DNA of 63,361 bases. Source: a virus. Its lineage: Duplodnaviria > Caudoviricetes. This document shows, piece after piece, positions 22,933-58,095 of the stretch (position 1 is its first letter; each line of letters begins with the position of its first letter). The stretch covers positions 1-63,361 of IMG/VR virus record IMGVR_UViG_3300027974_000039; one strand, written 5' to 3'. A program made the translations under genes and the position numbers. The notes below the pieces were generated by a model that saw nothing but the letters and a program-made list of their open reading frames with translations, was not told the DNA's origin and searched no databases.

Positions 22933-23646
22933 ATGACTACTACAAACAGCCCATATGGATTTTCATCAAAAGAAGAACTTTTCCCAGGAGTCTGGGTATA
23001 TAGAGATGTAATTAAAAAAGAATTAAATGTAATAGATAGACTTAACTCAATTGGAGAAGCATCTATCAGAGACAATGAATCAAGATTTAGTTGGACTTTT
23101 GGATTTGTTGGATACAGCGAAAAAAGACCTTCATACAGAGATTGTGAAGATATTAAAGTTGGAGAAATAAATAATCCAACAAATGAAACTCAAACGCTAG
23201 TTGCTGATTTGTGGTCTGATTTAAAAAAAGTACAAGATGTTGCAGTTCAAGATTATTGTAATAAATACAATGTAAAAATGAATTTTTGGGAAGTTATGAA
23301 TTGCATACGATATGGCAAAGGACAGCATTTTCAAGAGCATGCAGATCATGGATTTTCATATAGTGCAACAGTGTCTTTAGTAGCATATATAAATGATGAT
23401 TATGAAGGCGGTAATTTGTTTTTTCCTAAAATTGGCTTAGACATTAAGCCAAAAGCTGGAGACCTATATATTTTCCCATCTACCTATTTGTTTTCTCATA
23501 GAGCAATGCCAGTAATTGAAGGACAAAAATTTTCTATAGTTACGATGCTTGATTATAATGATCATGCCCACAAACAAGAGTTTTTTGAAGCAAGAGCCAG
23601 ATGGGTTGAAGAAGACGCAAAAACTGGCAAAAATTCTTATGCATAA
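22933..23646 (+). CDS. 2OG-Fe(II) oxygenase (prolyl 4-hydroxylase-like)
   Basis: HAD, YINDDYEGG, HRAMPV..GQKF. Confidence 0.9.
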   Translation: MTTTNSPYGFSSKEELFPGVWVYRDVIKKELNVIDRLNSIGEASIRDNESRFSWTFGFVGYSEKRPSYRDCEDIKVGEINNPTNETQTLVADLWSDLKKVQDVAVQDYCNKYNVKMNFWEVMNCIRYGKGQHFQEHADHGFSYSATVSLVAYINDDYEGGNLFFPKIGLDIKPKAGDLYIFPSTYLFSHRAMPVIEGQKFSIVTMLDYNDHAHKQEFFEARARWVEEDAKTGKNSYA

Positions 23647-24352
23647 AATTAAAGCCTATACTATAAGAGAAGGCTACGGAGAAGTTACGCCTCTTTCTAT
23701 TAAAAGAGAGTGGATGGATAATACTTATGATGCACATGCATACAAGTGTTTTCCAGTAGGCCTTACAAATCAATTAGGATGGGGAATATCTTTTCCAGAA
23801 GATATATCTTTTATATGGGATGGTATTTGCGATAGTACTCCAGATCATGTGAAAATTTTATCTGGAGAAAAATATGCTTATTCTGGAAGAGCTAATGGAA
23901 CAATAAGTTTTAATACAGGCTTAATGTTTGTTACAGATGAAAATACAAGTCTTTTATCTATGCCTGTCCCAAATTTATTTTTTGAAGGTGCTGTTCCATT
24001 TACAACTTTAGTAAGTACATCATTTTTCCCTGGGGAATTGCCGTGTGCTTGGATGATAACAAAAGCAAATGAAATTATAACAATTAAAGCGGGGACTCCA
24101 ATAATTGCAATATTACCTATAGATCTAGAAGGACTTCAAAACTCAGAAATTAACTTTGAGCCTATGTCATCGGCACCTCAGCAAAAATTTGATTCAACTG
24201 AATATTCAAATGTTGTTTATAATCTTAATAGATCAGCTACTTGGTCTAATTTTTATAGAGATGCAGTAGATCATTTAAAAAACAGTATAGGGAAACATCA
24301 AATTAAAGCAATAAGACTAAAGGTAAATAATGAAAACAATACAAGTTTATAA
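23639..24352 (+). CDS. DUF6065-like protein
   Basis: REWMD....HAYKCFP...N.LGW.I.FP....FIWDG; start placed at ATG 23639 overlapping the previous stop. Confidence 0.75.
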   Translation: MHKIKAYTIREGYGEVTPLSIKREWMDNTYDAHAYKCFPVGLTNQLGWGISFPEDISFIWDGICDSTPDHVKILSGEKYAYSGRANGTISFNTGLMFVTDENTSLLSMPVPNLFFEGAVPFTTLVSTSFFPGELPCAWMITKANEIITIKAGTPIIAILPIDLEGLQNSEINFEPMSSAPQQKFDSTEYSNVVYNLNRSATWSNFYRDAVDHLKNSIGKHQIKAIRLKVNNENNTSL

Positions 24353-25025
24353 AACAGGCGGTCCAGAAACAATTTTATCCCCACTTGAAACAGATAGAGA
24401 GTGGATGCATGAAAATAAATATGGCTATAATTGTTTTCCAATAACTCTTCCAAACAAAATGGGTTGGGCAATATCTTTTCCAAAAGATATATCTTTTATT
24501 TGGCATGGTAGCAATAAGCAAGGTCCCGATGGTGATATAGAAATTTTATCTGGAGAAGAACATTGTTATTTTGAAAGAGGCGGTGGAGTTATTGGATTTC
24601 CCACTAATCTAGTTTTTAAAACAGAAGAAGACTTAAGCATAGTAACAATGCCAGTTCCAAATCAATTTATAGATGGAGCTCAATGTTTTACATCAATTTT
24701 ATCAAGTTCATTTTACACTGGAGCACTACATGTAGTTTGGAAAGTAACTTCTCCTAACAAAATTATAACAATAAAGGCTGGCACCCCTGTTGCAGCCGTA
24801 TTGCCAATTTCACTAAAAGAGATAAATAATATAAAGGCAGTTATTTCAGAAGAATCAATTTCAGATACGGTTCATGATGGAGATTACGTTGATGCCATGA
24901 CCAAATATGGAATGGATAATATGAGAACTTCAGATTGGTATAAAAAAGGAATAGATCATAAAGGTAATATAGTAGGAAAACATGAAATAACAAGCTTTAA
25001 ATTTGAAGTAGAAGAAAGAAAATGA
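24330..25025 (+). CDS. DUF6065-like protein (paralog)
   Basis: REWMH....GYNCFP...N.MGW.ISFP.DISFIW.G; ITIKAGTP shared with the preceding gene. Confidence 0.75.
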   Translation: MKTIQVYKTGGPETILSPLETDREWMHENKYGYNCFPITLPNKMGWAISFPKDISFIWHGSNKQGPDGDIEILSGEEHCYFERGGGVIGFPTNLVFKTEEDLSIVTMPVPNQFIDGAQCFTSILSSSFYTGALHVVWKVTSPNKIITIKAGTPVAAVLPISLKEINNIKAVISEESISDTVHDGDYVDAMTKYGMDNMRTSDWYKKGIDHKGNIVGKHEITSFKFEVEERK

Positions 25026-25080
25026 TTATATGGTAAAATTAGATAAACAGCACTTTTTATGTATTATGAAGAGGAAATAA

Positions 25081-25755
25081 ATGAAACCGTCAAATGCTTG
25101 GTCACATGAACCACCAAAGTCTATAACTCCATCTGGATTTTTTGGAAACTCAATAGATAACATTGTTGAAATAAAAGATTTTTTAAGTTTAGATGAACGC
25201 AAGCGTCTAATGGACTTTGCTCTGAATAATAAAATTTGGGATATAACTGAAACTCACAGAGATGCAGATGGATTAGTTTTGTATGATCACACTGTTTGGG
25301 AAGACAGAGTATGCACTTATAATTCTTTAATGGCTTCAGATCCTTCTATATTAGATTTGATTTATAGCATGATTAATAGATTAAAAATAGAAGTAGATGC
25401 ATTTTTTAATGTTGATGCAAAAGAAACTGGACCTGCAATTGTTAGATGGCCCATTGGAGCTCGTCAGGAACCACACGCAGATAAAGAATTTCATTCTGGC
25501 CCAGAAAAAGGAAGAGCAAATGACTTCCCTTGGTATGACCTAGCTGGACTATTTTATTTTAATGATGATTATGAAGGTGGAGAATTATATTTTCCACAGC
25601 ATGGAATTGAATTTCAGCCAGTTGCAGGAGCAGCATATTTTTTCCCAGGTGATATGTATTATACACACGGTGTCCGCCCAGTAAAATCTGGAAATAGATT
25701 TACATCGCCATTTTTTTGGACGATAAATAAACATACAGGAGAAAAACAGCCATGA
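25081..25755 (+). CDS. 2OG-Fe(II) oxygenase
   Basis: HAD, YFNDDYEGGEL, HGVRPV..GNRF. Confidence 0.9.
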   Translation: MKPSNAWSHEPPKSITPSGFFGNSIDNIVEIKDFLSLDERKRLMDFALNNKIWDITETHRDADGLVLYDHTVWEDRVCTYNSLMASDPSILDLIYSMINRLKIEVDAFFNVDAKETGPAIVRWPIGARQEPHADKEFHSGPEKGRANDFPWYDLAGLFYFNDDYEGGELYFPQHGIEFQPVAGAAYFFPGDMYYTHGVRPVKSGNRFTSPFFWTINKHTGEKQP

Positions 25756-26603
25756 GTGAATTAAGCTATATAGAACTTTATCCAAAAATTGATGTATACA
25801 GAAATGTATTAGAAGATCCAGAAGCTTTATATAAAACTATGAATAAATCTGAAAAAACTTCTGAAGGCAAATATTTTTTAAAGACTTGGGATCCATGGGC
25901 ACATTTTGGAACTTACACACAAAAAAAAGATATAAGAGAAGTTGCTGATGATGTTTTGTCACATGAAATGTTTATTGAAGAAAAAAAGTTTGTTGAAGAT
26001 GTAGAGTCTGCATATAATAAAGTTATTTTAGATTATGTTGAAAGACATAAAATTAACCTTCCAGAAGGGTGGAGATTTAGCGGAGCTTCATATTCTAAAT
26101 ATAATGCAGGAATAAATAATTTAAATAATAATTTAACAATGCAATATCATACAGATCATATTACATCACAAAGAGATATGCCTGGAGATAAATTTTTTAT
26201 AACCTGTACAATGTATATAAATGATGATTATGATGGTGGAGATATTGAATTTTATATTGATGGGACAATAATTAATCATAAGCCTAAGCCTGGAGACATA
26301 TTGGTATTTCCATCTACTCAACCATATTATCATGGTGTTAAAACAATTAACACAAATGAAAAGTTTTTTGTTAGAAACTTTATTATGACTCCTCACAATG
26401 GAACAGAAGAATGGCTTGCAAACCAAAGAAAATTTGGTGCTTACAGATGGGCAAAAATGGAACAAGAAAGAATAGACAATGAGGATAAAAGAAATATGCT
26501 TTATTTTAATGATGGCGTATTAGTTTCTTACGAAGATCATATTAAAAAACAATTTGGTAGCGAAGAAAAATTACATGACCAGTATCCAAAGGAGATGATG
26601 TAA
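25752..26603 (+). CDS. 2OG-Fe(II) oxygenase
   Basis: HTD, YINDDYDGGDI, HGVKTI...EKF. Confidence 0.9.
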   Translation: MSELSYIELYPKIDVYRNVLEDPEALYKTMNKSEKTSEGKYFLKTWDPWAHFGTYTQKKDIREVADDVLSHEMFIEEKKFVEDVESAYNKVILDYVERHKINLPEGWRFSGASYSKYNAGINNLNNNLTMQYHTDHITSQRDMPGDKFFITCTMYINDDYDGGDIEFYIDGTIINHKPKPGDILVFPSTQPYYHGVKTINTNEKFFVRNFIMTPHNGTEEWLANQRKFGAYRWAKMEQERIDNEDKRNMLYFNDGVLVSYEDHIKKQFGSEEKLHDQYPKEMM

Positions 26604-26604
26604 C

Positions 26605-27357
26605 ATGGAAAGAGATATGATTATAACAAGACATAAGTCAGATATTGTAACTTATGAAAACTTTCTTACTCCAGAAGAATGCAAATCTGTAATTGAAGTT
26701 TTAGCAATTAAAATGGAAAAAGAAGAATTAAAATGGATGCCAATTTCTTTTTATGAGTCTTATTCTTCTGGTATGCCAGAAGTAAATGACCCAGATACAA
26801 TTGCATGCGGATTACCAGGAGATTTTTTTCAAGTATTGAGACAGCGAGTCATTGATGCAACAGCAGATATGGCAGGTAAAAATCCTGAGCAGATGTCGCA
26901 AATAAGCTGGCACTCTCAAAGATGGGCACCTGGAGCATTTGCTAATATGCACTCAGATAATACAGACAATGAAGGAAAATCTGGTGCATTTACTAGAAGT
27001 AGATATGCAACATTTATTTATTTAAATGATGACTTTGAAGATGGCATATTAAACTTTAAACATGGTCTCACCATTGTGCCAAAAACTGGGTTAATGGCAA
27101 CATTTGCTGGTGGATTTGAAAATACTCATGAAGTTACAACAGTCAAGAAAAATATTAGATATACGCTGGGATCTTTTTGGGATGATAGAGAAGAGTCAGA
27201 TTATCCACAAGAAATAAGAGATGCTTGGGCCACAGAGCTTGCAGAAGTTAGAGCTCATCAAAAAATAGAAGCTGTTGAGTGGGAAGAAATTCGTAATAAA
27301 GGATTAAGAATAACTAATGCTGGAGAAACTTATCCAGCTTCAGAAGTGGAGAACTAG
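26605..27357 (+). CDS. 2OG-Fe(II) oxygenase
   Basis: NFLTPEEC, HSD, YLNDDFEDG, HEVTTV...IRY. Confidence 0.9.
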   Translation: MERDMIITRHKSDIVTYENFLTPEECKSVIEVLAIKMEKEELKWMPISFYESYSSGMPEVNDPDTIACGLPGDFFQVLRQRVIDATADMAGKNPEQMSQISWHSQRWAPGAFANMHSDNTDNEGKSGAFTRSRYATFIYLNDDFEDGILNFKHGLTIVPKTGLMATFAGGFENTHEVTTVKKNIRYTLGSFWDDREESDYPQEIRDAWATELAEVRAHQKIEAVEWEEIRNKGLRITNAGETYPASEVEN

Positions 27358-27358
27358 T

Positions 27359-28009
27359 ATGGAAAATAATATTGAATTTAAACAATTTCAAATGTTTGAC
27401 CTAAAACCACTTTCAAATGATATCTGGTATTGGGAAAATGTACTAAGTTTTCCAGAAGACCTAAAAAAATTTATTGATACTATAGATGATGAACCAGAAT
27501 CTTATTCAAGAATATCAAAATGGGAAAATTGGACGGCAAGCAATGATAGTAGTCTTGTATATGGCAAAACAAAAGTTATCAACAAAGATAATTTAAAAAT
27601 TTCTACTGGGTCAGACTCTATAGATAAAAGAACATTATACATTGCTAATAGTATTTTAATGGCATTTGAAATGTGCACAGAAAGATATTTAGCTATACGT
27701 AATTTAGATAAAAATAATTATAATTTAAATCTTGATAGAATTACTATTAAAGCATGGAATGAAGGACAGTCCATGGGCCCACATTTTGATGGTCAAGATG
27801 GAAATAAAGATTTGGCATTTTCTTTGGTTGCATATATTAATGATGACTATGAAGGCGGAGAAATTAGCTTTCCAAATCATAATATTACTATTAAGCCAAA
27901 GGCTGGAAGTTTAATAATGTTCCCATCGCAAGAGCCATATATTCATGAAGTAAAACCAATTACATCTGGTACTAGATATATGAGCCCTGCACACGTATAT
28001 ATTAAGTAG
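27359..28009 (+). CDS. 2OG-Fe(II) oxygenase
   Basis: HFD, YINDDYEGGEI, HEVKPI..GTRY; start placed at ATG 27359. Confidence 0.9.
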   Translation: MENNIEFKQFQMFDLKPLSNDIWYWENVLSFPEDLKKFIDTIDDEPESYSRISKWENWTASNDSSLVYGKTKVINKDNLKISTGSDSIDKRTLYIANSILMAFEMCTERYLAIRNLDKNNYNLNLDRITIKAWNEGQSMGPHFDGQDGNKDLAFSLVAYINDDYEGGEISFPNHNITIKPKAGSLIMFPSQEPYIHEVKPITSGTRYMSPAHVYIK

Positions 28010-29148: not shown

Positions 29149-30954
29149 ATGTCATATAAATATACTGTCTTAAAAGATAATCCACTTTCATTTTTTTTAC
29201 TAGATGAAGTTCGTTCTGGTGCTGCTGGCGTATACAGTAATTTAACATCATTATTTTCAACATACGCAGATTTAAGAGATAATGGGATTTCATATGCAGC
29301 AGTAAGTGGTCTGCCAATAAAAGATTATTCTGGTAATGCAATGGAAGGATATGCAATTGATGCTTCTGCCATGGAAGTATTGCCCATAGTTGGAGCGGGT
29401 ATTAGAGGAACAGAAATTAATGAAAATATAGACCTGTCTTTAAAAGCTTTAGGAATTGCTACTTCTAAAAATCCAGATAGCCCATTTGCATTTGAGATAT
29501 GGTTTAGCCCAGATATATCTGATTCAGAAGAATATTTAATACTTGGAGACGCAACAAATAAAATAGGACTATTTTATAATAATGAAAATGTAATATTTAA
29601 ATGTACAGAACAAGAAAAAATATTTTACAAAGTAACTAAAAATCAAGTTATGCATATAGTAGGTACATTTTCTAAAGACAAAATTTCATTATACATAAAT
29701 GGAGTCCTTGTTTCTGAAAAATTAATCACTTCAGGATTTAAATTTATCAATGAGTCACTTGCAATAAAAATTGGTCCAGCTAATACTGGTAAAAAATTTA
29801 TAGTAGATTCTGCAGCAATTTATAATTATGAAATTGAAAATACAAAAATTTTATCTCATTATATGGTTGGATATAAAGAAACAAAATACTCACAAATTGT
29901 TTATTCTAAAGATGGCACATTATTCTCATTAAATTCTGTGTTTATAAAACCAGATGTATCCTACAGATATCCTGGATTAAAATCTTTAGATTCTATAGTT
30001 TCGGGAGATGCATACTATAATCCAACCTATAAAAGAATAGAGTTTGCACAAACAATATTACCAGAAACAAAAACTTTTATATTTGAAGAAAGGCTTTATG
30101 TTCCTAATCCAGAAACAATTGTTTCTTCTAGAATATCTTATGGCCAAGATGTAGAAAATATATTAGTAGAAGCTAAAGTTCCAGGACAAGAATGGAAGGC
30201 ATGCAAAAATAATTCTGTTTTACCATACTACAACAAAAATGAAAATTTAATTGGGCCAATATTAGATATTCGTGTGACAATGACGACGCTTGATTCTTCT
30301 TCTGATTTGCCTTATTTTGATAAGCTAGAAATTGATTTATATTCTAACAAAGACTTTTATTCTGACAGTGGTGGAGGAAAAGTATATTCGGACTATGACT
30401 ATTCACTTGGATATTACAATTACCCAGTAAGAATGCAAAATAAATATAATGGTCTTTCCATGATTTCAGGACATGGATTCTCTGTAGATCTTGCAATACA
30501 GCCAAGAACCATTGAAATGTTTTTTACCCCAAGAGAAGGAAAAAATGTTTTATTCTCATCAAATGCTGCATCCTTTAAATGGACTAATGCGGGGGCAATA
30601 ACAAAAAATGGAATTAGCGCAATATACGTTAATGGTATAAATAGAACTGCATCTACAAATATATCTGAATTCCTTTTAAGTGGAGTTTCACACCATATAC
30701 TAATAGTCTTAAGCGCAGTTGCTACAAGCATTAAATTTAATCAGAGTCAAAACGGATCAGAATATGGTGGATCTAATACCTATAGCAATTTAGCATTCTA
30801 TGAGACTCCATTTACCGCTTCACAAGCCTTAAAGAATTATAATCTATATTGCTCAGATAATTCATTTACAGTGCAGGACCCAGGTATAAATTTTTCAGAA
30901 AGTGCTAATGGTCAAGACAATACAGCCTACTTCATCAGATCTTTTGACGTATAG
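29149..30954 (+). CDS. LamG/concanavalin A-like domain virion protein
   Basis: Y...VL.DNP..F..LDE start; FAFEIWF, HIVGT....ISLYING, AAIYNY. Confidence 0.75.
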   Translation: MSYKYTVLKDNPLSFFLLDEVRSGAAGVYSNLTSLFSTYADLRDNGISYAAVSGLPIKDYSGNAMEGYAIDASAMEVLPIVGAGIRGTEINENIDLSLKALGIATSKNPDSPFAFEIWFSPDISDSEEYLILGDATNKIGLFYNNENVIFKCTEQEKIFYKVTKNQVMHIVGTFSKDKISLYINGVLVSEKLITSGFKFINESLAIKIGPANTGKKFIVDSAAIYNYEIENTKILSHYMVGYKETKYSQIVYSKDGTLFSLNSVFIKPDVSYRYPGLKSLDSIVSGDAYYNPTYKRIEFAQTILPETKTFIFEERLYVPNPETIVSSRISYGQDVENILVEAKVPGQEWKACKNNSVLPYYNKNENLIGPILDIRVTMTTLDSSSDLPYFDKLEIDLYSNKDFYSDSGGGKVYSDYDYSLGYYNYPVRMQNKYNGLSMISGHGFSVDLAIQPRTIEMFFTPREGKNVLFSSNAASFKWTNAGAITKNGISAIYVNGINRTASTNISEFLLSGVSHHILIVLSAVATSIKFNQSQNGSEYGGSNTYSNLAFYETPFTASQALKNYNLYCSDNSFTVQDPGINFSESANGQDNTAYFIRSFDV

Positions 30955-39565: not shown

Positions 39566-39898
39566 TTGGCAACAACAGTATATGATGTAGAAGAAATTCA
39601 ACTACAAAATGGCGCAACCGTAAAGTTAAAGCCTTTAACAATTAAAGAGCTTAGAAAGTTTATGGCAGCTATTGCAAAGACAGCAGAAGTAACTACAGAA
39701 GATGAGACGCTAACCATCCTAATCGATGCTTGTGCAGTAGCATTAGAAAAACAGCTTCCAGAATTAGTGGCCGACAGAGATGCATTTGAGGACGTATTAG
39801 ATGTACCAACAATTAATCGCATCCTTGAAGTTTGTGGTGGTATTAAGATGGACGATCCAAATTTGCTAGCAGCAGCGGTTCTAGCTGGTCAGAACTAG
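39566..39898 (+). CDS. Tail assembly chaperone (G)
   Basis: Between tail tube and tape measure; AGGAGG SD with TTG start. Confidence 0.8.
   Translation: MATTVYDVEEIQLQNGATVKLKPLTIKELRKFMAAIAKTAEVTTEDETLTILIDACAVALEKQLPELVADRDAFEDVLDVPTINRILEVCGGIKMDDPNLLAAAVLAGQN
39859..39865 (+). other. Programmed -1 frameshift slippery heptamer
   Basis: A AAT TTG (X XXY YYZ) in the G frame; the -1 frame is open from 39847 to 40224. Confidence 0.75.
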
Positions 39899-40224
39899 AT
39901 CTAGCTGCATTAGAAGGAGAAGTATTCTTAATAGGAAACTATAAGAATTACGAAGAATTAGAAGACAGTCTTTCAATGCCAGAGTTAATTCAAACCTTCT
40001 CAGCAATGCAAAAGACTGAATCAGAAAAAAGAAAGTTTCTGGCATCCATACAAGGCATAGAGCTTGACAGTGGAGAACAAGAAGAAAACAAGAGTTTTGA
40101 AGATGTAAAAAGAAAAGCTCTTGGAATAACTGCAGATGCATCTGATATTGTTTCACTACAAGGTCAGTTTGCTTCAGAAGCAGGGTTCGGTATCGGGGCA
40201 GGACTCGGATACCAAAAGGAGTAG
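39865..40224 (+). CDS. Tail assembly chaperone frameshift extension (T part of G-T)
   Basis: -1 frame reads ASSSGSSWSELDLAALEGEVFLIGNYKNYEELEDSLSMPEL... and continues into ORF 39976..40224. Confidence 0.75.
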   Translation, partial: ASSSGSSWSELDLAALEGEVFLIGNYKNYEELEDSLSMPELIQTFSAMQKTESEKRKFLASIQGIELDSGEQEENKSFEDVKRKALGITADASDIVSLQGQFASEAGFGIGAGLGYQKE

Positions 40225-40228
40225 GTAG

Positions 40229-43200
40229 TTGGCAGATCAAAATATAGTTACCAACATAACTGCGACGGCTAATTTTAGTAGCCTAACAGCGCAGTTACAA
40301 GCGGTGACCTCTCAACTTCTAAAACTTCAAGCTACAACAATTGGTTTAAATAAAAATTTAACTAGCCAAGTTGGAGTAATGAATCGTCAGTTTGACGAAA
40401 CCATGCGCTCCACTGGCCAGTTTGCCAGACACTTTGTAACACTAACTTCAGACGTATCTAAGTTCGGACAGAACCTAGATAGCGGAAGAATGAAGCTAGG
40501 TCAATATTTTCAAACATGGCAAGGACACACAAGAAAAACTAGCACATTAGTTAAAGAGCTAGCTAAACAGCAGGTAATGCTTGAGAATGCAATTATCCAA
40601 CCACTAGGTAAAAATGCTCAAGGATTAATGCAATATAACGTAATGGTTCAATCTGGACTAGATGCAACAAAGAATAAATCTGCACTATTAAGACAAGAAC
40701 TATCTATCATGAATAAGGTCATGAATGATGGGGCGGGCCAATTAATTAACTGGGGTAAAAATACACAGTGGGCTGGTAGACAGCTTACAGTAGGACTTAC
40801 TGTACCATTAGCAGCATTTGGTATGGCTGCAGCAAAAGCATTTAGACAAGCAGACGAAGAGCTTGTTAGACTTACAAAGGTTTACGGCGGGTTAACAGCA
40901 ACATCATCATCAGATTTATTAAAAGTAAGAAAAGATGTAGCTGCTTTATCTAGAGAATTAGCATCTGGCTTAGGTGCAAACTTTACAGAGACTATTGGAT
41001 TAGCAGCTGACATTGCTGCAACTGGAAAAGAAGGAAATGCACTTCTAGAATCAACTAGACAAGCAACAAGACTTTCAGTTCTTGGTGAAGTTGATAGGCA
41101 AGAGGCAATGAAAGCAACACTATCAATTCAGACAGCTTTTGGACAAAACACAGATCAGTTAGCACAATCAATTGACTTCCTTAACGCAGTTGAAAACCAG
41201 ACATCAACGAGCCTTGCAGATTTAGTAGAAGCAATTCCTAAAGCTGGACCAGTTGTAAAAGCATTAGGTGGAGACGTACAAGATTTAGCACTTTATTTAA
41301 CAGCAATGCGAGAAGGCGGAATCAATGCTTCAGAAGGAGCAAATGCATTAAAATCTGCATTAGCATCTATCATTAATCCAACTAAGGTTGCAAAGGGTAT
41401 GTTCATGGATCTTGGTATAGATCTTGGCGGTATAGTTGAAAAAAATGCTGGAAACTTAACTGGAACAATAATGGCATTAAAAGATTCACTAGATACATTA
41501 CAACCACTAGAAAGAGCAAGAGCAATTGAGCAGCTATTTGGTAAATTCCAATTTGCAAGAATTAATGCATTATTTGAGAATCTTGGGAAACAAGGAAGCC
41601 AGACACTAAAAGTATTAGATTTGATGAAAGCTAGCACATCAGATTTAGCTAGTATATCTGATCGAGAATTAAAAACAATGACTGAATCTGCCTCTGGTAA
41701 ATATAAGAGAGCACTTGAATCTGTAAAAGCAGACCTAGCAGTAATTGGAGAACAATTCTTAAAGGTTGGAACATTTGTATTAAATGCAATTGATGGAATT
41801 GTTAAATTTATTGGGCACCTTCCAGGACCAATTAAAGCAGTACTAGGATTTATTGGAAGCCTTACAGCAATTGCTGGACCTATTATTATGTTAACTGGTG
41901 TGCTTGCTAACTTCTTTGGATATATTATTAAGGGTATTTTTGCTTTAAAGAATATTGGTAAAGGTGGAACAGGATTTAAACTTTTAACTCCAGAATTGAT
42001 GGCAGCAGCAGAAGCTGGCAAAAGTGTAGAGCAATCATTCTATAGCGATACAAAGGCAGCAGCCACATTCTCTGATGCAGTATTAACATTAGCAGCTTCA
42101 TTTGAAAAACTAAAGCAAAGCGCAATGTCTTCCACTATTGCAACTAATAATAGTATGTCTACAGTTGCTGGTAGCCCAGTTATGCGTGGCGGAGGAAGAA
42201 TTGTAGATAAAGAAAACCCTCTTGTTGGAAGACCTTATTCAAGAGATATGTCTCATGTTATTCCAACTGGATCAAAGACTGCAGAACAAAGAGCAAATGA
42301 AACAATATTTTCTACTGTTCCTGGCCCTAAGCCAGTAAACTTAAGACTTTCAAATTCACCACAAACATACATGAGTGAAGATCTTCCAAGAATTCCTGGA
42401 GTAACTTCAGTCAATGGAGTATCTAACGGTATAGTTGCAGCGGAAGCAGCAAAATGGCATTCTATGACAGCAGCACTTGCTATGCAATCAAAGGCAGAAA
42501 TAGCATTACTTAAAACTGAAGTAGCAGCAACTGGAACAGTAACTGCCTCACTAGCAGATTCCTATCAAGCATTACTTCCACAAATGACAAAAATAACTAC
42601 TTTAGCTGCAGAAGAAACAGCACTAATAGTTAATCAATTACAAGCTGGCAAGATTACAGTAGAAGCAGCAAGGGCAAAGATATTTGCATTGAATGCACAA
42701 GTAGAAGCTATGATGGCTCAAACTGCACAAGGAGTTGCTACAGCTCAAGCAAGAAGCATTAGTTTAACTACAGTTCCATTAACTAGCCAGCCAGTTGTTA
42801 GCGCAGCTGGTAAATCAAATATGAAAGAGCTTTTTCATAAATCAGAAACTTCTAAATTAGTAGATTCAATAGCACGTGGCCTTGGCGTTAGAACTTCTGG
42901 AGCTGGATATAGCATTCAAACAACAAAGCCTAGATTTAATACTGGTGGAAAGATTGAAAACTTTGGTCAAAACAAAACTCGGGTAAGCGGTCCTGCATCT
43001 GTAACATACGATGATCGAATGGGCAGCGTTCCAGTAGGTGGATATGTATTAAACCAAGCAGCATCTATGGATCCAGCAAATGCTCAATTAGTAGCAGCAG
43101 CTCCATCAACTCATAAAAATAGTGGTGGTAATATAACTGCACTCCTTACACCAAAAGAAACAGTATTTGGTCCAGGCATTCAAGATAATCCAGAACTTTT

Positions 43201-46200
43201 TGCCGCAGTAGATGCAGCAAATAATGGAAGGCCAGTTGCAGGACATATGGGTGGCGGAAGAATTAGTCTTTCAAAATCTAATTACGGAGTAATGGGCCCA
43301 GCAGTAATGGGTAAAATTTTAGCACAGCTATTTAAGCGCAATCCAAAACTTTCAAGAGAGATGCTACTAGGAAGAGACATGTCTTTGTCTGGCGCAGAAG
43401 CTAGAGCATATCAAGAAAGTGTATTTGGTTCTGCAGTTAGATCATCATCTAAAGAATTAAGTAGACAATATTATTATGTAGGAAATTGGGGCGGAAGGCT
43501 AAGATCAAGTGTTAATACAGCTCTTTCCCATGGTGCTGCTAAAAAAGCTGATGTTGTAAGCGATTTAATGCATGGATCATCACAACAAGCACTTCCTTCA
43601 CTTACAAGATTTTTGCAAGTAAATAAAATATCTGCAGATAAAATACAATTGTTAACTGATCGTGCTAGAGCAAATATAGTTTCTGGTTTATCTGGAACTG
43701 GTAAAATTGGAGAAGCAGAGTGGTCAAGACTTCAACACAAAGAGTATCTTGCTATAGCAAAAGAACTTCGATTAAGAAAAGAATACTTAGAAAGTTTAAA
43801 TGTTCCAGGACAAAGAAGAGCTCATTCAACTGATCCAGCTGCAAGAGGAATTCAAGCAGAAACTGCTTTAAATCCATATGGCAAAACAGATTTAGAAAAA
43901 CTTATTGCCGCAAATGATGCAAATGGAACAAGATACATGGGGTCATACCGTAATTATGGAATAGAAAAAATTAATGGAGAACCAACAGCGCTAGCGCATA
44001 TGATGCCTAAATTCAATTATGGTGGCAAAATAAGACCAGGAAAGTCTAATTACGGAAAGCCTATGTTCCTTGGAATGCCTAGAAGAATTAAGGATATAGA
44101 GCAACAAAGACAATCTAGACTTCACATGGAAGAAATTAGTGCTGGTCTTAAGAACAGCAGATTTGCAGATGTGCCACCAACAGATTTTGGTAAATTAATA
44201 ACACCTACTTCTGGAAGAAGTTTCCCAGTTCCAGGTATTGGTGGATTATATGAAAAACCAGATGGCACTAGAGTATTTGTTAAGCCAGTAATGGATGAGA
44301 CAGCAGCGTTAGCCGAACAACGTGCAACAATCATTGCAAGAAATGCACATGGATTACATTCACCAATGCAATCAATTAGGACCATGATAGACCCAACTGA
44401 TCCAGCTGGTAAAAGAAAACTTCTTGTTTTAGAGTCCCCATACGATAAAGCATTTGCACAATCTTCTGGAGAATTTAGCAGGAAAGATTATTTTAAACAA
44501 TTAGTAGCCGCTAATTTAAGAGGAGATAAAGATTTAGGGGCAGGCAATCTATATGGTGGGACACTTGCAGATGTAGGAACTGCTGGCGTATTTAAGATGG
44601 CTTCTGGCAAGAGAACATATGAAACAAATATGCCTTCAATGTCAGATCAAGCACGTATTAATTTGCTTGGAGTAAAAGGTGGAGCCAAGAAGTTCTTTGC
44701 AGAATCTACTTTAAATATACCAAAGGGAATGACACCTAAGCAATATCATGAAACAATGATTGCTGAGATAGACACTGTTCTTCCAGCTTTAAAGAAAACA
44801 ATATCAGAATTTAAATTAAATGCAGAAGAATTAGCTATATATAATGCAATGATTAAAAGACTTGAAGATGGCAGAAATGTTAATTGGCAAGAATTTCATG
44901 GCATCCATTCTGCAGTAAAACCTGCAGCGGCTAAAGCGCTTACCCCTGCAGCGTTAAAGAAATTAAAAGACGAAGTAGATTTAAGAATAAGACAAAAAGG
45001 ACATGCAATATCTTTAAGCGATAATTCATTTAAAACGCCTCTTAATGGATTTAATGGAGGCGGAGGAATTGGTAATGTCTTAAAGGGATTAGCTATGAGA
45101 AGAATTGGTGCAGGCTTTGGGCCAACAGGTGCACCTAAACCTAGTACATATGAATCAGCTCCATGGGGAGTTAACTCACTATCTATTGAAATGGCAAATA
45201 CATTATTTGCAAATTCTGGATTAAGAAAGCATACACAAAAACTTCTTTACGATAAGTTTGCTGCTGCCTTGGCAAAAGAAAAACCTTATGGATACGTTAA
45301 AGATGCACAAGGTTCTTTAAAGAATGCACTTGAGCCAGCATCACTAGATGCAGTAATTAGACAAGCTGCTAGCGATTTAGTTGGCGATAGAAATCTATTA
45401 AGACAACTATCTCCAATAGATAAAGACATTCTTAGAAACAAATATTTAAATTGGGATTCAAGAAAAGATACCCCAATGACTGCAGAGCTAAAGAAAAAGA
45501 TATTTGGCATTGATGGTAAAAGAGAAATGGGTGGACCAGTATCTCCAGGACAAAATTATGTTGTTGGAGAAAAAGGCCCAGAAATATTCAGTCCTTCACA
45601 AAGCGGAAATATTATTCCAGGATATGAAGTTGGCGGAGTTATTAGATATGGTAAAGATTCATATGGAGTAAGTGGTAATCCAGCAAAACGTGCAGCAGAA
45701 GCAGCAGCTAAAGCAGAACGTATTGCAGCTTCTCAAGCTGCAGCAACTGCAAACCCAGAATATAAAGAAGGACCGCTTTCTGTAGGTAAAACTACAATAG
45801 TTGGAAATGGCGGAGTAAGAACAAATGCTTATGGCCTGCAGGGGTCTTTCCCGTATGCTCCAGGATTAAAGCTTCCATTAAGAGGATTTAATGCAGCAAT
45901 AGATTCAGCTATATTATCAATTTCAAGTAATTTAAAGGCAGCATCAAATAGATTAATTACTAGCACAAGAATGATTGGCGATCAGATAAACTCATCTTTA
46001 AGAACATTATCTGATGGAGCAAAAAGATTTGGAACATCAATTACAGCATCAACTAAAACACTTGTTTCTTCATATAAGCATGGTGGATCTGAAATATTAA
46101 AATATGGTGCCCCTGGAGCGTTTGTTGGAACTAGAGAAGATCGTAACGCTAGAATGCTTGGTTCATTTAAAGCTAATGCTGCATATTCAACTGCAGCAAT

Positions 46201-48865
46201 AATGCATCCACTTCAATATTTAAAGCAAAAGGGTGTATTGGGAATGGATCCTAATAAGCCAGCTCTTGGAACTGGTGCCCTGGGCAGTACTGTTGGAATG
46301 ATGGGTGGAATGGCAGCTGGAACTGCAATCGGTGCAAAATTTGGAGGACAACAAGGCGCAATGATGGGAAGCATGGCTGGAATGATGGCTGGTCCAGCTT
46401 TAATGTCAGGTGCTGGTAAAGCAGTTTCAATGATGGCAGCCAGATCAGTTACCATGGGAGTTGCATCAGCTGGACTTGGAGCAACAGCAGCTGGAATTGC
46501 AGGCTTAGTAGCACCACTTGCTGCAGTAACAGCTGCAGTTTATGTTGGATACAAAGCGTGGAAACATTATAAAGAAGGACAAACTCTTAATATATCTACA
46601 TTTGGTCTTACTGCAGAAGCAGCTAAAAAAGCTAATTTAAGATTTACAGACTTTGGTTCAAAAATAAAAGATACTATTCAGGATTCAAAAGATTTGGCTG
46701 CTGCAAATAAACTTGTATATGAAAGCATGAAAGATGGCGGAACTCCATTTCAGATGACAATTGCAGAATATAAAAAACTAAAGGTTGAAGTAAAAGAAAC
46801 ATTTGGCGAGCAGATTAAAGCATTAGATAGACAACCGTCTACTAAAGTTCCAGATGCAGTCCGAAGAATTAAAGAACAGTTAATAGCAGCTGGAATGTCT
46901 GCTGAAGAAGCAACTAAAAAAGTATATACAATGCTTCAGCTTTCAAATAAAAAAGATCAATCAATTACTGCAACAATGGGTAACGCAGACTTTAAAGCAA
47001 TTACAGATCCTCAAAGCGCTGCAGTTTCTGCAGTCACAAGTTTTGGTAAAGACACAAAAGATCAAGGAAATAAAGAAAAAGCTGCATCATTAAATACAGC
47101 TCTCATGGCAACTGAAACTGGAATTAACGATTTAATTGCAAAGAGAGAAAGACTTGTAGCAAAAGATTTGACTGGAAAGACTAAGTCATTAACATATGCA
47201 GAAGCCGAAAAACAAATGATAGATCAGATAAATAAATCTAAAGAAGCTGGCACAGTAATTACTCAGGGCACAATTGATGAAATGGCAAAAACAAATCCAG
47301 AAGTTAAAAAAATGATTAATGGATCTGATACAGTTGTAAGCGTATGGCAAAAAATTAGATTGCAGGCGCAAGGATTTACTGGTGATCTTTCTAAATTAAA
47401 TTCATCTCAAACAAAACTAATTGCTGATTCTTTTGCTGCTATAGCAACATCTGTTGTAGCAACTAATTCAAGTAAAGATGGACTTCTTTCAAAACAATAC
47501 AGTGCGCTTGGAAAATTAGAAGACAAGATTAAATCTTATACTAAAGCATTAAAGGGTCAAACAGTTTCTCAGCAGATATCTGATAGGGATAAACTGTCTG
47601 CACTTAATAAGCAAATTGAGGCAAATAATAAACTTGCTGAGGCCAGAAAGAAAGCACTTACTGCCGCACAAGCAGATGCTGATCTTGGCAGAGAAATTGA
47701 AAAGACTAGACTTGCAATGCAAAATGCTTCAGCTACTGGAGATACAGTACAAGCACAATCATTGAGAATTGATTTAGAATCATTAACATCTCAGCAACAA
47801 ACAGAGTCTCAAACAAAAGCTATTGATAAAGCAACTGAAGCTGCTAATAAGCCGCTACAGGATGCTATTAAGGCTATGAATGATAAGCAGCAAGGTCTTG
47901 CAGACAGTGCAGCATTAGCTGGAGAAAGTTTAGACAAGGTCCGCACTAAATATGATGAGCAAAAAGCAGCTATAGATAAAGTAAATAATTCAATGACTGC
48001 ACTTTATGGAAATGCAGCAGCAGCTGGTAAATCAATAGAAGAATATGTTAAGACAAATAAAGAAGCTGCAGCAGGATTAGTAGCAGCAACAGAAGCAGCT
48101 ACTGGTACAAAGATGGAAAGATATACTGAAACAAAAGCTTATGAGGGTGGACAACTAGTAACTAAAAAAGTTCCAGTTTCACCACAAGCAAATGCACTAT
48201 CAATACTAGCAAAAGCAGGAGCGGGATCTGCTGTTAATGACGCACTTGCAAACAGCATTAAGGGTGGAGCAACACTTAAAGATGTTGTAAATGCAGTAAA
48301 GGGTGGCGTTGCAGGAATAAAAAGAAAAGATATTGCAGTATCTGGAGATTACTCTAAAGCAATGGAAGAAAAAGAATTTAATGGAGTTAAGACAAAAGTT
48401 TTAAATGCACAAGCTAGAAGATCAATTGCACAATCACAAGACTTACAAATAGGAGAAACTTTTATTTGGAATGGTCAAAGATATGGGAAAAGCCAAAAAG
48501 ATGGCAACATTGTTTTTATGGGTAAAGCTGCAACTGGAGTACAAGGCGGAGCGGCAGGAATGTACCTTGTTGGAGAAAAAGGACCAGAATTTGTTCACTT
48601 AAAGAGTCGTGCTAATATTATGCCAAACGATGTTATGAATACATTAGCTGCAGCATCTCCAAGATATAATTTTGATAAAGCTCAATATAATATGAAAGAC
48701 GGAACTACTTCAGGTAATTCATATGTTGTAAATCAAAATATTTACGCATCTGAAGGAATGGATGTTGAGGCATTATCAAATATGATTGTTAAAAAAGCAG
48801 AAATTGTTATTGGACAAAAGGCCAAAGTTAATGTTAAAATGGTTGGACAGGGGAAGAATATATAA
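40229..48865 (+). CDS. Tape measure protein with inserted cargo domains
   Basis: 2878 aa; TMP core (G..LT.GLT.PL, EGANALKS, ..LFGK), hydrophobic segments, coiled coils, two GEKGPE motifs; follows the chaperone genes. Confidence 0.93.
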   Translation: MADQNIVTNITATANFSSLTAQLQAVTSQLLKLQATTIGLNKNLTSQVGVMNRQFDETMRSTGQFARHFVTLTSDVSKFGQNLDSGRMKLGQYFQTWQGHTRKTSTLVKELAKQQVMLENAIIQPLGKNAQGLMQYNVMVQSGLDATKNKSALLRQELSIMNKVMNDGAGQLINWGKNTQWAGRQLTVGLTVPLAAFGMAAAKAFRQADEELVRLTKVYGGLTATSSSDLLKVRKDVAALSRELASGLGANFTETIGLAADIAATGKEGNALLESTRQATRLSVLGEVDRQEAMKATLSIQTAFGQNTDQLAQSIDFLNAVENQTSTSLADLVEAIPKAGPVVKALGGDVQDLALYLTAMREGGINASEGANALKSALASIINPTKVAKGMFMDLGIDLGGIVEKNAGNLTGTIMALKDSLDTLQPLERARAIEQLFGKFQFARINALFENLGKQGSQTLKVLDLMKASTSDLASISDRELKTMTESASGKYKRALESVKADLAVIGEQFLKVGTFVLNAIDGIVKFIGHLPGPIKAVLGFIGSLTAIAGPIIMLTGVLANFFGYIIKGIFALKNIGKGGTGFKLLTPELMAAAEAGKSVEQSFYSDTKAAATFSDAVLTLAASFEKLKQSAMSSTIATNNSMSTVAGSPVMRGGGRIVDKENPLVGRPYSRDMSHVIPTGSKTAEQRANETIFSTVPGPKPVNLRLSNSPQTYMSEDLPRIPGVTSVNGVSNGIVAAEAAKWHSMTAALAMQSKAEIALLKTEVAATGTVTASLADSYQALLPQMTKITTLAAEETALIVNQLQAGKITVEAARAKIFALNAQVEAMMAQTAQGVATAQARSISLTTVPLTSQPVVSAAGKSNMKELFHKSETSKLVDSIARGLGVRTSGAGYSIQTTKPRFNTGGKIENFGQNKTRVSGPASVTYDDRMGSVPVGGYVLNQAASMDPANAQLVAAAPSTHKNSGGNITALLTPKETVFGPGIQDNPELFAAVDAANNGRPVAGHMGGGRISLSKSNYGVMGPAVMGKILAQLFKRNPKLSREMLLGRDMSLSGAEARAYQESVFGSAVRSSSKELSRQYYYVGNWGGRLRSSVNTALSHGAAKKADVVSDLMHGSSQQALPSLTRFLQVNKISADKIQLLTDRARANIVSGLSGTGKIGEAEWSRLQHKEYLAIAKELRLRKEYLESLNVPGQRRAHSTDPAARGIQAETALNPYGKTDLEKLIAANDANGTRYMGSYRNYGIEKINGEPTALAHMMPKFNYGGKIRPGKSNYGKPMFLGMPRRIKDIEQQRQSRLHMEEISAGLKNSRFADVPPTDFGKLITPTSGRSFPVPGIGGLYEKPDGTRVFVKPVMDETAALAEQRATIIARNAHGLHSPMQSIRTMIDPTDPAGKRKLLVLESPYDKAFAQSSGEFSRKDYFKQLVAANLRGDKDLGAGNLYGGTLADVGTAGVFKMASGKRTYETNMPSMSDQARINLLGVKGGAKKFFAESTLNIPKGMTPKQYHETMIAEIDTVLPALKKTISEFKLNAEELAIYNAMIKRLEDGRNVNWQEFHGIHSAVKPAAAKALTPAALKKLKDEVDLRIRQKGHAISLSDNSFKTPLNGFNGGGGIGNVLKGLAMRRIGAGFGPTGAPKPSTYESAPWGVNSLSIEMANTLFANSGLRKHTQKLLYDKFAAALAKEKPYGYVKDAQGSLKNALEPASLDAVIRQAASDLVGDRNLLRQLSPIDKDILRNKYLNWDSRKDTPMTAELKKKIFGIDGKREMGGPVSPGQNYVVGEKGPEIFSPSQSGNIIPGYEVGGVIRYGKDSYGVSGNPAKRAAEAAAKAERIAASQAAATANPEYKEGPLSVGKTTIVGNGGVRTNAYGLQGSFPYAPGLKLPLRGFNAAIDSAILSISSNLKAASNRLITSTRMIGDQINSSLRTLSDGAKRFGTSITASTKTLVSSYKHGGSEILKYGAPGAFVGTREDRNARMLGSFKANAAYSTAAIMHPLQYLKQKGVLGMDPNKPALGTGALGSTVGMMGGMAAGTAIGAKFGGQQGAMMGSMAGMMAGPALMSGAGKAVSMMAARSVTMGVASAGLGATAAGIAGLVAPLAAVTAAVYVGYKAWKHYKEGQTLNISTFGLTAEAAKKANLRFTDFGSKIKDTIQDSKDLAAANKLVYESMKDGGTPFQMTIAEYKKLKVEVKETFGEQIKALDRQPSTKVPDAVRRIKEQLIAAGMSAEEATKKVYTMLQLSNKKDQSITATMGNADFKAITDPQSAAVSAVTSFGKDTKDQGNKEKAASLNTALMATETGINDLIAKRERLVAKDLTGKTKSLTYAEAEKQMIDQINKSKEAGTVITQGTIDEMAKTNPEVKKMINGSDTVVSVWQKIRLQAQGFTGDLSKLNSSQTKLIADSFAAIATSVVATNSSKDGLLSKQYSALGKLEDKIKSYTKALKGQTVSQQISDRDKLSALNKQIEANNKLAEARKKALTAAQADADLGREIEKTRLAMQNASATGDTVQAQSLRIDLESLTSQQQTESQTKAIDKATEAANKPLQDAIKAMNDKQQGLADSAALAGESLDKVRTKYDEQKAAIDKVNNSMTALYGNAAAAGKSIEEYVKTNKEAAAGLVAATEAATGTKMERYTETKAYEGGQLVTKKVPVSPQANALSILAKAGAGSAVNDALANSIKGGATLKDVVNAVKGGVAGIKRKDIAVSGDYSKAMEEKEFNGVKTKVLNAQARRSIAQSQDLQIGETFIWNGQRYGKSQKDGNIVFMGKAATGVQGGAAGMYLVGEKGPEFVHLKSRANIMPNDVMNTLAAASPRYNFDKAQYNMKDGTTSGNSYVVNQNIYASEGMDVEALSNMIVKKAEIVIGQKAKVNVKMVGQGKNI

Positions 48866-57294: not shown

Positions 57295-58095
57295 ATGACA
57301 AACGATTTAAAATGGATGCTCTCGTCAGATCAACAGTTCCCGTATCAAGATGATAAGATGATTGAGCTATGGTTTAAGGTCATGAAATGGTTTAAGCCAG
57401 ATGTTGTTGACTACCTTGGGGATACAGACGACCAAGCATGCTATAGCAAATATACAGAAGGACGCTCAGCAGAATTTTTAAACTTTCATAAAACAGATAG
57501 CAGGGACCTTATCGTTCCAATGATGCGACACGAAGCAAAAGGCGCAAGAGATTTTTATGCAAAGACAAGAGATATGCTTCCAGAGGCTCAGTTATTTTCA
57601 GCACTTGGTAATCACGATGTAAGAATCTTTAACTATGTTGATGCAAAACTTCCAGACTACATAAATGAAGTTACACCAGAAGCATTATGGGGACTTGACT
57701 CATTAGGATATGAATATATTTATTATGATGAACTACCTAAGCGCCGCTTTGGAGATATTCACGTTCACCATGGACTTTCAATTGCAGCAACAGGATCTGC
57801 AAGAAAAGATATGGAAGACATGCAGGTATCTTTAATTCGTGGTCACTCACACAGAATTGCTTCTCATATGGTAACATACGAACTTAGAAACAATGGCGCT
57901 GGAGAAACTCTTCGTGGATACGAGATTGGTCATATGTGTGACGAAAAGGGTCCAGGAATGAAATATACACAACACCACGATTGGCAAAAGGGATTTGCTG
58001 TTGCACATATTGTTAATGACTATCCTCACATTCAAATGATCCACGTGTCACCAGATTACTCTTGCGTGGTGGATGGAAAGTTTTTTCAAGTATGA
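57295..58095 (+). CDS. Calcineurin-like metallophosphoesterase
   Basis: SD, LGD..D, GNHD, HHG, GHSH motifs. Confidence 0.88.
   Translation: MTNDLKWMLSSDQQFPYQDDKMIELWFKVMKWFKPDVVDYLGDTDDQACYSKYTEGRSAEFLNFHKTDSRDLIVPMMRHEAKGARDFYAKTRDMLPEAQLFSALGNHDVRIFNYVDAKLPDYINEVTPEALWGLDSLGYEYIYYDELPKRRFGDIHVHHGLSIAATGSARKDMEDMQVSLIRGHSHRIASHMVTYELRNNGAGETLRGYEIGHMCDEKGPGMKYTQHHDWQKGFAVAHIVNDYPHIQMIHVSPDYSCVVDGKFFQV

Follow-up and report, generated by a model that had tools for sequence, protein, structure and literature searches.

The stretch of DNA analysed here (the window) is 63,361 nucleotides long and corresponds to positions 1 to 63,361 of the IMG/VR virus record IMGVR_UViG_3300027974_000039 (Duplodnaviria; Caudoviricetes). 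It contains a single uninterrupted gene for a giant tape measure protein (TMP) of the tail; we describe here a domain within this protein that has the predicted fold of protein kinases, retains a complete set of kinase catalytic residues, and is probably enzymatically active. The identity of the 2878-residue protein is established both by hidden Markov model (HMM) matches and by the position of its gene. Residues 243-438 match the Pfam family PF10145 (E = 1.4e-27; 97.3 bits, cut-off 33.2), residues 192-546 match the NCBIfam family TIGR01760 (E = 1.2e-28; 100.2 bits, cut-off 28.8), and nine PHROG TMP families match between residues ~10 and 870. A public protein of 2879 residues is 99% identical to it. 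The gene lies within a siphovirus-type late module. Before it come genes for the portal, protease, major head protein and adaptor and, where a tail tube gene would be expected, one for an Ig-domain protein; on its 3' side are genes for a 1098-residue minor tail protein and for other tail proteins. None of the PHROG sheath families gave a match.

Five kinase-like motifs each occur once in the TMP open reading frame (ORF), and they occur in this order: a Gly-rich loop, a beta3 Lys equivalent, a helix-C Glu equivalent, a catalytic-loop equivalent, and a metal-binding DFG equivalent (Table 1). An earlier note on this DNA had read the same motifs, in this order, as an atypical kinase-like domain at positions 44200-44920 inside a TMP. 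The motifs, their order and the nature of the carrier protein are all borne out, and the proposed range lies within the domain as we delimit it. The residues that the note had assigned as the catalytic Lys, Glu, Asp, Asn and Asp are also those that the family conserves. We counted residues as non-gap sequences among 274 related sequences, many of which are close relatives. Lys1352 and Gly1339 are each present in 256 of 256 sequences, and Asn1440 and Asp1448 in 268 of 268. Glu1363 is kept in 252 of 260, the 8 exceptions being Gln; Asp1433 in 262 of 268, with 6 Asn; Asp1435 in 267 of 268, with a single Val; and Arg1431 and Gly1450 in 262 and 264 of 268, respectively. Because so many of the 274 sequences are closely related, a more independent count comes from an alignment (A1) of 35 domains, made up of the window domain and 34 others that were each less than 55% identical to those already picked, drawn from 127 full-coverage matches. 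In A1, whose numbering plus 1311 gives the protein numbering, K41, E52, N129 and D137 (Lys1352, Glu1363, Asn1440 and Asp1448) are invariant, as are G18, S20, G28, P68, P78, S92, Q113 and Y227, and D122 and D124 (Asp1433 and Asp1435) together with Y30 are conserved at 90% or above. The 18 related loci in IMG/VR are all open and all keep the six catalytic residues. For the 10 closest of these loci dN/dS is 0.11-0.20, at dS values (0.8-1.3) that are near saturation. The domain is under purifying selection.

The spacing between Asp1435 and Asn1440 is D-x4-N, which is typical of the catalytic loops of both canonical kinases (HRDLKxxN) and PI3K/PI4K enzymes (DRHxxN). Asp1435 is therefore the likely catalytic base and Asn1440 a likely metal ligand. 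In the predicted structure described below, the full protein-kinase-like (PKL) catalytic set of Lys, Glu, Asp, Asn and Asp is present, with each residue on the model element where it would be expected. The Gly-rich loop may act as an ATP clamp, by analogy with kinases of similar fold, and contains an invariant Ser, Ser1331. HipA and HipT are reportedly autophosphorylated on a Ser in their Gly-rich loops, and we treat the resemblance of Ser1331 to that residue as a lead only.

AlphaFold2 models the domain with high confidence when given A1 (predicted local distance difference test score, pLDDT, 95.4 and predicted template modelling score, pTM, 0.91; range of pLDDT over the five models 93.6-95.4). 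In the numbering of A1, the model runs through strands 11-15, 28-31 and 37-43 (which carries K41), helix 46-61 (which carries E52), and strands 71-76 and 86-93. Beyond these lie helix 107-120, a loop containing D122, D124 and N129, a hairpin at 130-135, the D137-V-G motif, and a helical lobe spanning 160-250. The predicted structure thus has the bilobal layout of the PKL fold, with a five-strand N-lobe plus helix C and a helical C-lobe.

Comparison of this model with experimental structures returned mainly kinases. A Foldseek search of the PDB is dominated by them (BAK1, p38, CtkA, HipA, CK1 and LepB). A VIA-align search of 48,161 representative PDB chains, which is independent of Foldseek, gave 20 chains with Z of at least 8, and all of the best 50 listed matches are kinase-fold proteins. 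The closest is CotH (Z 11.8, 215 residues aligned at 4.0 Å), followed by PI4KIIalpha (10.4), MavQ (10.3), CtkA (9.8), the unnamed bacterial kinase 7wcf (9.2), Fam20 (9.2), Vps34 (9.0), HipA (8.6) and actin-fragmin kinase (8.4). Lower in the list are RIO (7.5), macrolide phosphotransferase (7.0), and Bud32, WaaP, NleH and OspG (6.5-7.1, with WaaP at 6.7). When the best 1000 Foldseek chains were re-scored with VIA-align, the values were 11.3 for CtkA, 10.4 for PI4KIIalpha, 9.9 for LepB, 9.6 for HipA and 9.3 for HipT. The nearest named clusters in the ESM Atlas are HipA_2, LepB_N and PI3_PI4_kinase, each at 0.92, and are leads only. Among viral models in BFVD, the closest include large phage proteins annotated as portal or ADP-ribosyltransferase and proteins annotated as 'PI3K/PI4K catalytic domain' (E 4.7e-6 to 1.4e-4, TMq 0.34-0.53); cargo of the kinase fold may therefore be found more widely in virion proteins.

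The kinase-like domain is embedded in a protein whose parts differ sharply in conservation. The N-terminal TMP region is common to 112 of the 150 representative homologues, where it is always N-terminal to the kinase domain. It includes a hydrophobic stretch that may have a role in the membrane. The following variable region, common to 17 of the 150, has a mean identity of 29-52% (residues 901-1260) to nine close homologues, against ~85% in its flanks. Its part directly N-terminal of the kinase domain, residues 1021-1260 (positions 43289-44008), is only 29-34% identical among nine TMPs that are otherwise ~85% identical, and looks hypervariable or exchangeable. A conserved block at residues ~1320-1800, which includes the kinase domain, is 74-89% identical to nine close full-length homologues, and identity falls again to 35-57% in residues 1801-2040. 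The portion of this block that lies beyond the kinase domain has no named relatives in the ESM Atlas. Post-kinase or C-terminal parts are common to only 17-19 of the 150 representatives, and residues 1801-2110 to one. The motif GEKGPE, which forms part of an internal segment of TMP C-terminal type, occurs again at residue 2782 (positions 48572-48589) in the charged and probably helical region beyond residue 2108. The protein may have arisen by the addition of ~1050 residues behind an older TMP end. A minus-strand ORF of 87 codons at 44122-44385 was considered as a gene and rejected; it lies inside plus-strand coding sequence that is conserved and under purifying selection.

Table 1. Positions of the features discussed, in window coordinates; model elements are in A1 numbering.
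Feature	Residues	Positions	Strand	Remarks
TMP gene	1-2878	40229..48865	+	Uninterrupted single ORF; TTG start
Two small ORFs	110 and 82 residues long	39566..40224	+	Immediately 5' of the TMP gene; hits to phrog_10504 and phrog_10474, families with no assigned function
N-terminal TMP region	1-880	40229..42868	+	Conserved; contains PF10145 match
Hydrophobic, membrane-segment-like stretch	535-573	41831..41947	+	Kyte-Doolittle, 19-residue window, score >=1.6
Variable region	881-1311	42869..44161	+	Between N-terminal region and kinase domain; no Pfam or PHROG match
Atypical protein-kinase-like fold domain (predicted)	1312-1578 (~267)	44162..44962	+	AlphaFold2 model, structure matches, own family
Gly-rich loop, G1329-x-S1331 ... 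G1336-I-G-G-L-Y1341	1329-1341	44213..44251	+	Before and into model strand 2; GIGGLY at residue 1336 (position 44234)
Beta3 Lys equivalent, K1352	1352	44282..44284	+	VFVK at residue 1349; model strand 37-43
Helix-C Glu equivalent, E1363	1363	44315..44317	+	ALAEQ at residue 1360; model helix 46-61
Catalytic-loop equivalent, R1431-G-D1433-K-D1435-L-G-A-G-N1440	1431-1440	44519..44548	+	GDKDLGAGN at residue 1432; after model helix 107-120
Metal-binding DFG equivalent, D1448-V-G1450	1448-1450	44570..44578	+	LADVG at residue 1446; after short model hairpin 130-135
Block C-terminal to kinase domain	1579-1800	44963..45628	+	Conserved in close relatives only; 19 of 150 representatives
Internal TMP C-terminal-type motif	~1751-1832	45479..45724	+	GEKGPE at residue 1780; matches phrog_30701 and C-terminal ends of three PHROG TMP families
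Second hydrophobic stretch	2081-2108	46469..46552	+	Hydropathy scan; terminates a Gly/Ala/Met-rich region
Possible large terminase	601 residues long	29149-30954		
Metallo-phosphoesterase		57295-58095		phrog_221, E 1.2e-53
Tandem run of eight genes		22933-28009 and 16343-17047		Six 2OG-Fe(II) oxygenase-domain genes, one of them apart, and two DUF6065 genes
2OG-Fe(II) oxygenase domains in the run		22933-23646, 25081-25755, 25752-26603, 26605-27357, 27317-28009		Five genes
2OG-Fe(II) oxygenase domain apart from the run		16343-17047		Sixth gene
DUF6065 paralogues		23549-24352, 24330-25025		Two genes
Tryptophan-halogenase-family flavoenzyme		1893-3389		Full-length; PF04820, E 5.4e-104
Probable fibre or receptor-binding protein genes		10843-12387, 19091-21502, 12400-15828, 21526-22851		Mtd_N, PDZ and fn3 matches among the four

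The domain belongs to a sizeable family of its own. A single-domain query found 18 viral loci in IMG/VR, and phmmer, run exhaustively against 1.84 billion representatives, returned 167 proteins (50%-identity clusters) with E of 0.001 or below, 142 of them at 1e-30 or below. Most of the 150 listed phmmer matches are 1200-4500 residues long, and the short ones are partial. A word-indexed search found at least 953 clusters at 90% identity among proteins of 1582-5037 residues, most of them with PF10145. Nearly all the listed members have 1600-4500 residues, and nearly all of those that carry a name from their source bear the label 'TP901 family phage tail tape measure protein', with a few described as hypothetical, OmpA-like or YoaH. 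Among the listed homologous TMPs, four have CHAP and LysM domains and two have OmpA-like domains (P0235, P0238, P0247, P0256, P0233 and P0246), so the TMPs of this clade combine other domain types with the kinase domain. A search for stand-alone forms returned 18 proteins of 141-506 residues, of which 15 are on contigs shorter than 3.3 kb and the other three on contigs of 6.6-11.2 kb; we read all 18 as fragments and not as free kinases. Likewise, in most of the 38 representatives (of 150) that lack the TMP N-terminal region the domain falls within the first ~700 residues, too near the N-terminus, which suggests truncated gene calls. No clear stand-alone or non-TMP form was seen in this word-based search, which distant forms may escape. 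In an ESM Atlas feature search the nearest clusters (0.96) are unnamed proteins of 300-320 residues, mostly labelled Spirochaetota, and a viral cluster of 220-residue proteins, which could be stand-alone relatives or fragments. The domain is a new sequence family within the protein-kinase-like fold.

The structural neighbours of the domain share its fold at very low sequence identity, and the HMM thresholds of the HipA, PI3K/PI4K and CotH families are not reached, so that by these profiles it is a member of none of them. 'HipA/PI3K-type', the label used in the earlier note, thus describes the resemblance in fold, which is seen in the model and extends to CotH, CtkA, MavQ and LepB, and does not hold as family membership. 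CotH of Bacillus cereus (PDB 5jda, PF08757), the best match of the 48,161 chains, shares an atypical kinase fold and helical C-lobe with the TMP domain, but is only 8% identical to it. Searched with the PF08757 HMM, the window is empty at E<=10, while six control genomes give matches in the same search. CtkA of Helicobacter pylori, HipA and HipT (3akk, 4pu4 and 8ezr; Z 11.3, 8.6-9.6 and 9.3) align over 179-201 residues and cover residues ~1-250 of the model, but they are 12-15% identical to it and there is no significant HipA_C or HipA_2 HMM match. In contrast to HipA, the TMP domain is without the HipA N-terminal domain, the antitoxin partner and the catalytic-loop His, and is embedded in a virion structural protein. 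The PI3K/PI4K-type enzymes (PF00454, PF18640), represented by PI4KIIalpha (Z 10.4), Vps34 (9.0-9.1) and the Legionella effectors MavQ (10.3) and LepB (9.9), share the D-x4-N catalytic loop followed by a D-x-G motif. They differ in that the TMP domain gives no PF00454 match, is without His at the second position beyond the catalytic Asp, and shows no helical PIK accessory domain. Phosphoinositides are not known as lipids of bacteria in general.

Kinases have been placed in phages, and in virions, before. Four families of phage kinases appear in Benler et al. (2021), namely the T7 type, 933W Stk, CotH-lectin fusions and HipA-family kinases in 'Gratiaviridae', and only two phage protein kinases, T7 Gp0.7 and 933W Stk, are counted there as characterised (PMC8008677). 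The CotH-family domains that they note in phage genomes are described there as fused to C-type lectin domains and not to a TMP. The closest precedent is the prediction by Iyer, Burroughs, Anand, de Souza and Aravind (2017) of kinase domains in virion-packaged 'polyvalent proteins' of phages and plasmids, which would act on host proteins at entry, together with a zeta-toxin-type sugar-precursor kinase (PMC5512222). Both those kinases and the domain described here are kinase-fold domains fused into a large packaged protein. They differ, as far as a comparison by description goes, in that the polyvalent-protein kinases are without a C-terminal subdomain and keep a His and an Asp that are separated by an insert, whereas the TMP domain has a helical C-lobe, no His, and a TMP as carrier. 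The words 'tape measure' are absent from the text of that paper. For TMPs themselves, two papers (PMC12617516, PMC6116005) describe ejection ahead of the genome and peptidoglycan hydrolases carried by several of them. TM4, T5 pb2 and phiIPLA35 resemble the present protein in joining a TMP scaffold to a cargo domain, which in their case is active after ejection, but the cargo described there acts on peptidoglycan or has other non-kinase functions. Six TMP copies are reported for Ur-lambda in PMC12617516. Effectors of the Sle1 type, which are TMP-related effectors of contractile injection systems (CIS), have exchangeable functional domains (PMC13277306). Literature searches on tape measures with kinase domains and on virion HipA-like kinases, whose coverage excludes most subscription journals, turned up no account of such a fusion.

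Our preferred reading is that residues 1312-1578 form a folded and probably catalytically active kinase-fold domain, closest in predicted structure to CotH, CtkA/HipA and PI3K/PI4K-type enzymes. The strength of this reading differs between its parts. A kinase-like fold with an intact active site we consider highly probable. By analogy with the structural neighbours, ATP binding and phosphotransfer, and hence an active phosphotransferase, are likely, and that the virion carries such an enzyme within its TMP is also reasonably probable. Whether the domain would act after ejection, in the newly infected cell, is closely balanced, and we lean slightly away from it. As to its substrate, we marginally favour a protein, with Ser/Thr somewhat likelier to be phosphorylated than a lipid or sugar; a lipid, sugar or other substrate is appreciably less likely, and another chemistry or no catalysis at all a little less likely again.

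TMPs fill the tail tube, leave it before the DNA, and help to form a channel across the envelope. Since the kinase domain is part of the TMP, several copies would be inside the tail of each virion. On ejection, the TMP would be expelled ahead of the DNA and the hydrophobic stretches at residues 535-573 and 2081-2108 would enter the membrane; the kinase domain, which lies between them, would be released at the membrane and would fold or refold there. Drawing on the analogy with CotH, CtkA/HipA and PI3K/PI4K enzymes, residues 1329-1341 and the Lys1352-Glu1363 pair would hold ATP, Asp1435 would serve as catalytic base, and Asn1440 and Asp1448 would bind Mg2+. The domain could then phosphorylate a host target with cytoplasmic host ATP before any phage gene is expressed. 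Virion delivery followed by phosphorylation of host proteins or lipids ahead of phage gene expression, for anti-defence or takeover, which the earlier note had also proposed, is a plausible scheme. In its full form, with the giant TMPs of a large and so far uncultured siphophage group delivering an active kinase that phosphorylates host targets seconds after adsorption and before transcription, the proposal is a tentative one that we think somewhat doubtful. Targets of a delivered kinase could include defence proteins, the translation or transcription machinery, and membrane lipids.

Several observations weigh against this reading. The domain on its own matches nothing in Pfam at E<=10 and nothing in NCBIfam or PHROGs, and its best match among PDB sequences has a chance-level E of 1.5. 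The A1 profile likewise finds only chance-level matches among PDB sequences, the best (E 0.042) being a leucine-rich repeat protein. Among the 35 family members a single one matches HipA_2 of Pfam (E 0.014), without significance once multiple testing is allowed for. A tblastn search with the domain found no match at 1e-3 in 50,697 GenBank phage records, and so no cultured phage, and none was found in 185,579 species genomes by a method suited to close relatives, which prophage or cellular relatives may escape. The fold is a prediction and not a solved structure, and AlphaFold2 run without an alignment gives a poor model (pLDDT 41.8). The ATP pocket and the Lys1352-Glu1363 pair are deduced from sequence order and secondary structure. 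Foldseek, one of the checks that the earlier note had recommended, does list mostly kinases but with weak scores (best E 5e-4, two matches at E<=0.001, template modelling scores 0.23-0.36); the predicted structure for its part has the kinase-like layout whose absence the note had named as grounds for abandoning the idea. The VIA-align matches have 8-16% identity and root-mean-square deviations of 4-5 Å, and the tool itself warns that Z values of 7-8 are common for unrelated models, so it is the highest Z values, 10-12, together with the uniform make-up of the list, that carry the argument for the fold. Within the active site, the position two after Asp1435, where PI3K and HipA enzymes have His, is a Gly, as the earlier note had remarked in calling the His replaced, and Asp1448 follows only 8 residues after Asn1440, across a short hairpin, a shorter spacing than in canonical kinases. 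Finally, there are two physical difficulties with delivery. ATP is not available outside the cytoplasm, and folded domains of ~30 kDa, in three to six copies, would hardly fit side by side in a tail lumen of ~4 nm, and the domain would therefore have to be stored unfolded or staggered.

One might suspect that an ordinary helical part of the tape measure has come by these motifs through chance, given how common short motifs such as VFVK and LADVG are individually and given the empty single-sequence searches. We consider this ruled out, to the point of a negligible residual probability, by the conservation of the residues, the purifying selection, the high-confidence alpha/beta model and the 50 kinase-fold proteins among the 50 listed structural matches. 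It is less far-fetched, yet still very improbable, that the kinase fold is here uncoupled from kinase chemistry, with the domain being a pseudokinase, a nucleotide-binding or structural module, or an enzyme that uses ATP in another way, as in AMPylation or glutamylation, which SelO and SidJ, respectively, are said to carry out with a kinase fold. The missing catalytic-loop His, the unusually short Asn-Asp spacing, a very long Gly-rich loop and the lack of a sequence match to any active kinase family would all fit such a function. In pseudokinases, however, one or more of the Lys, Glu, Asp, Asn and Asp residues is usually missing, and here the full set is conserved (Lys1352 in 256/256, Glu1363 in 252/260, Asp1435 in 267/268, and both Asn1440 and Asp1448 in 268/268 sequences) at a dN/dS of 0.11-0.20.

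Two other alternatives accept an active kinase and differ on where, or on what, it acts. The enzyme might work in the phage-producing cell, by autophosphorylating the TMP, modifying a tail chaperone or tube protein, or altering the envelope against superinfection, with the copy in the virion a mere passenger. The gene belongs to the late structural module, so that its product appears at a time of plentiful ATP and phage proteins; the folded domain is hard to fit into the tail lumen; and Benler et al. argued along similar lines for a HipA-family kinase encoded between portal and capsid genes (PMC8008677). An assembly-phase enzyme would nonetheless not require fusion to the TMP, and the domain is fused to the TMP N-terminal region in 112 of 150 representatives with no clear stand-alone form, while the muralytic TMPs show that cargo domains act after ejection (PMC12617516 and PMC6116005). 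We regard this alternative as rather unlikely. Somewhat more weight, though still a low probability, attaches to an active kinase with a non-protein substrate, such as a lipid, sugar or envelope precursor at the site of entry, which would aid the TMP channel or the passage of DNA and would make the domain an envelope-breaching enzyme and not an effector of takeover. Lipid kinases are indeed among the closest structures (PI4KIIalpha 10.4, MavQ 10.3, LepB 9.9 and Vps34 9.0), and Fam20 (9.2), WaaP (6.7) and macrolide phosphotransferase (7.0) were matched too. Moreover, CHAP, LysM or OmpA-like domains occur in homologous TMPs, the enzymatic domains known from TMPs act on the envelope (PMC12617516 and PMC6116005), and the polyvalent proteins include the sugar-precursor kinase mentioned above (PMC5512222). 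On the other hand, the top-ranked CotH and CtkA, and HipA and HipT with them, are protein kinases, and similarity of fold does not separate substrates. An envelope kinase would, in addition, still need to face the cytoplasm, because ATP is absent from the periplasm and cell wall.

The preferred reading, in which the TMP brings an active enzyme of kinase fold into the virion, would extend the range of what tails transport. Going by the two papers on TMPs cited above, enzymatic cargo in TMPs has so far consisted of cell-wall hydrolases, and a kinase-fold domain in a TMP is a new carrier arrangement as well as a new kinase-fold family, although the prediction of virion-packaged kinases is already in print (PMC5512222). 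Should the domain prove active and delivered, the tails of siphophages would serve to inject effectors into the cytoplasm, a new candidate mechanism would be at hand for taking over the host, or countering its defences, before transcription, and the TMP could be tried out as a modular enzyme carrier. If true, the proposal would amount to a route through the tail lumen by which non-contractile phages deliver cytoplasmic effector enzymes, and to a fifth, unstudied family of phage kinases.

The nearest cultured relatives of the TMP N-terminal region, at 30-35% identity, are the TMPs of Streptomyces phages with ~130-kb genomes and of Gordonia phages, and a protein that is perhaps the large terminase matches the Streptomyces phages at 23-24% identity. 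The G+C content of the window is 32-42%, and no tRNA genes were found in it. The two small ORFs ahead of the TMP gene sit where tail assembly chaperones belong, and this position suggests a chaperone role. The metallo-phosphoesterase gene is ~8 kb downstream of the TMP gene, between tail and replication genes.

Further from the tail module, four genes between 10843 and 22851 encode two proteins that start with an Mtd_N (major tropism determinant N-terminal) domain and two large proteins with weak PDZ matches, one of which also has fn3. Although they lie far from the tail module, these Mtd_N/PDZ proteins are probably fibre or receptor-binding proteins. The tandem run that follows them contains genes with 2-oxoglutarate (2OG)-Fe(II) oxygenase domains and two DUF6065 paralogues (DUF, domain of unknown function), and with six oxygenase-domain genes in the window this paralogous array is unusually large for a phage. 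Near the start of the window is a gene for a full-length flavoenzyme of the tryptophan halogenase family.

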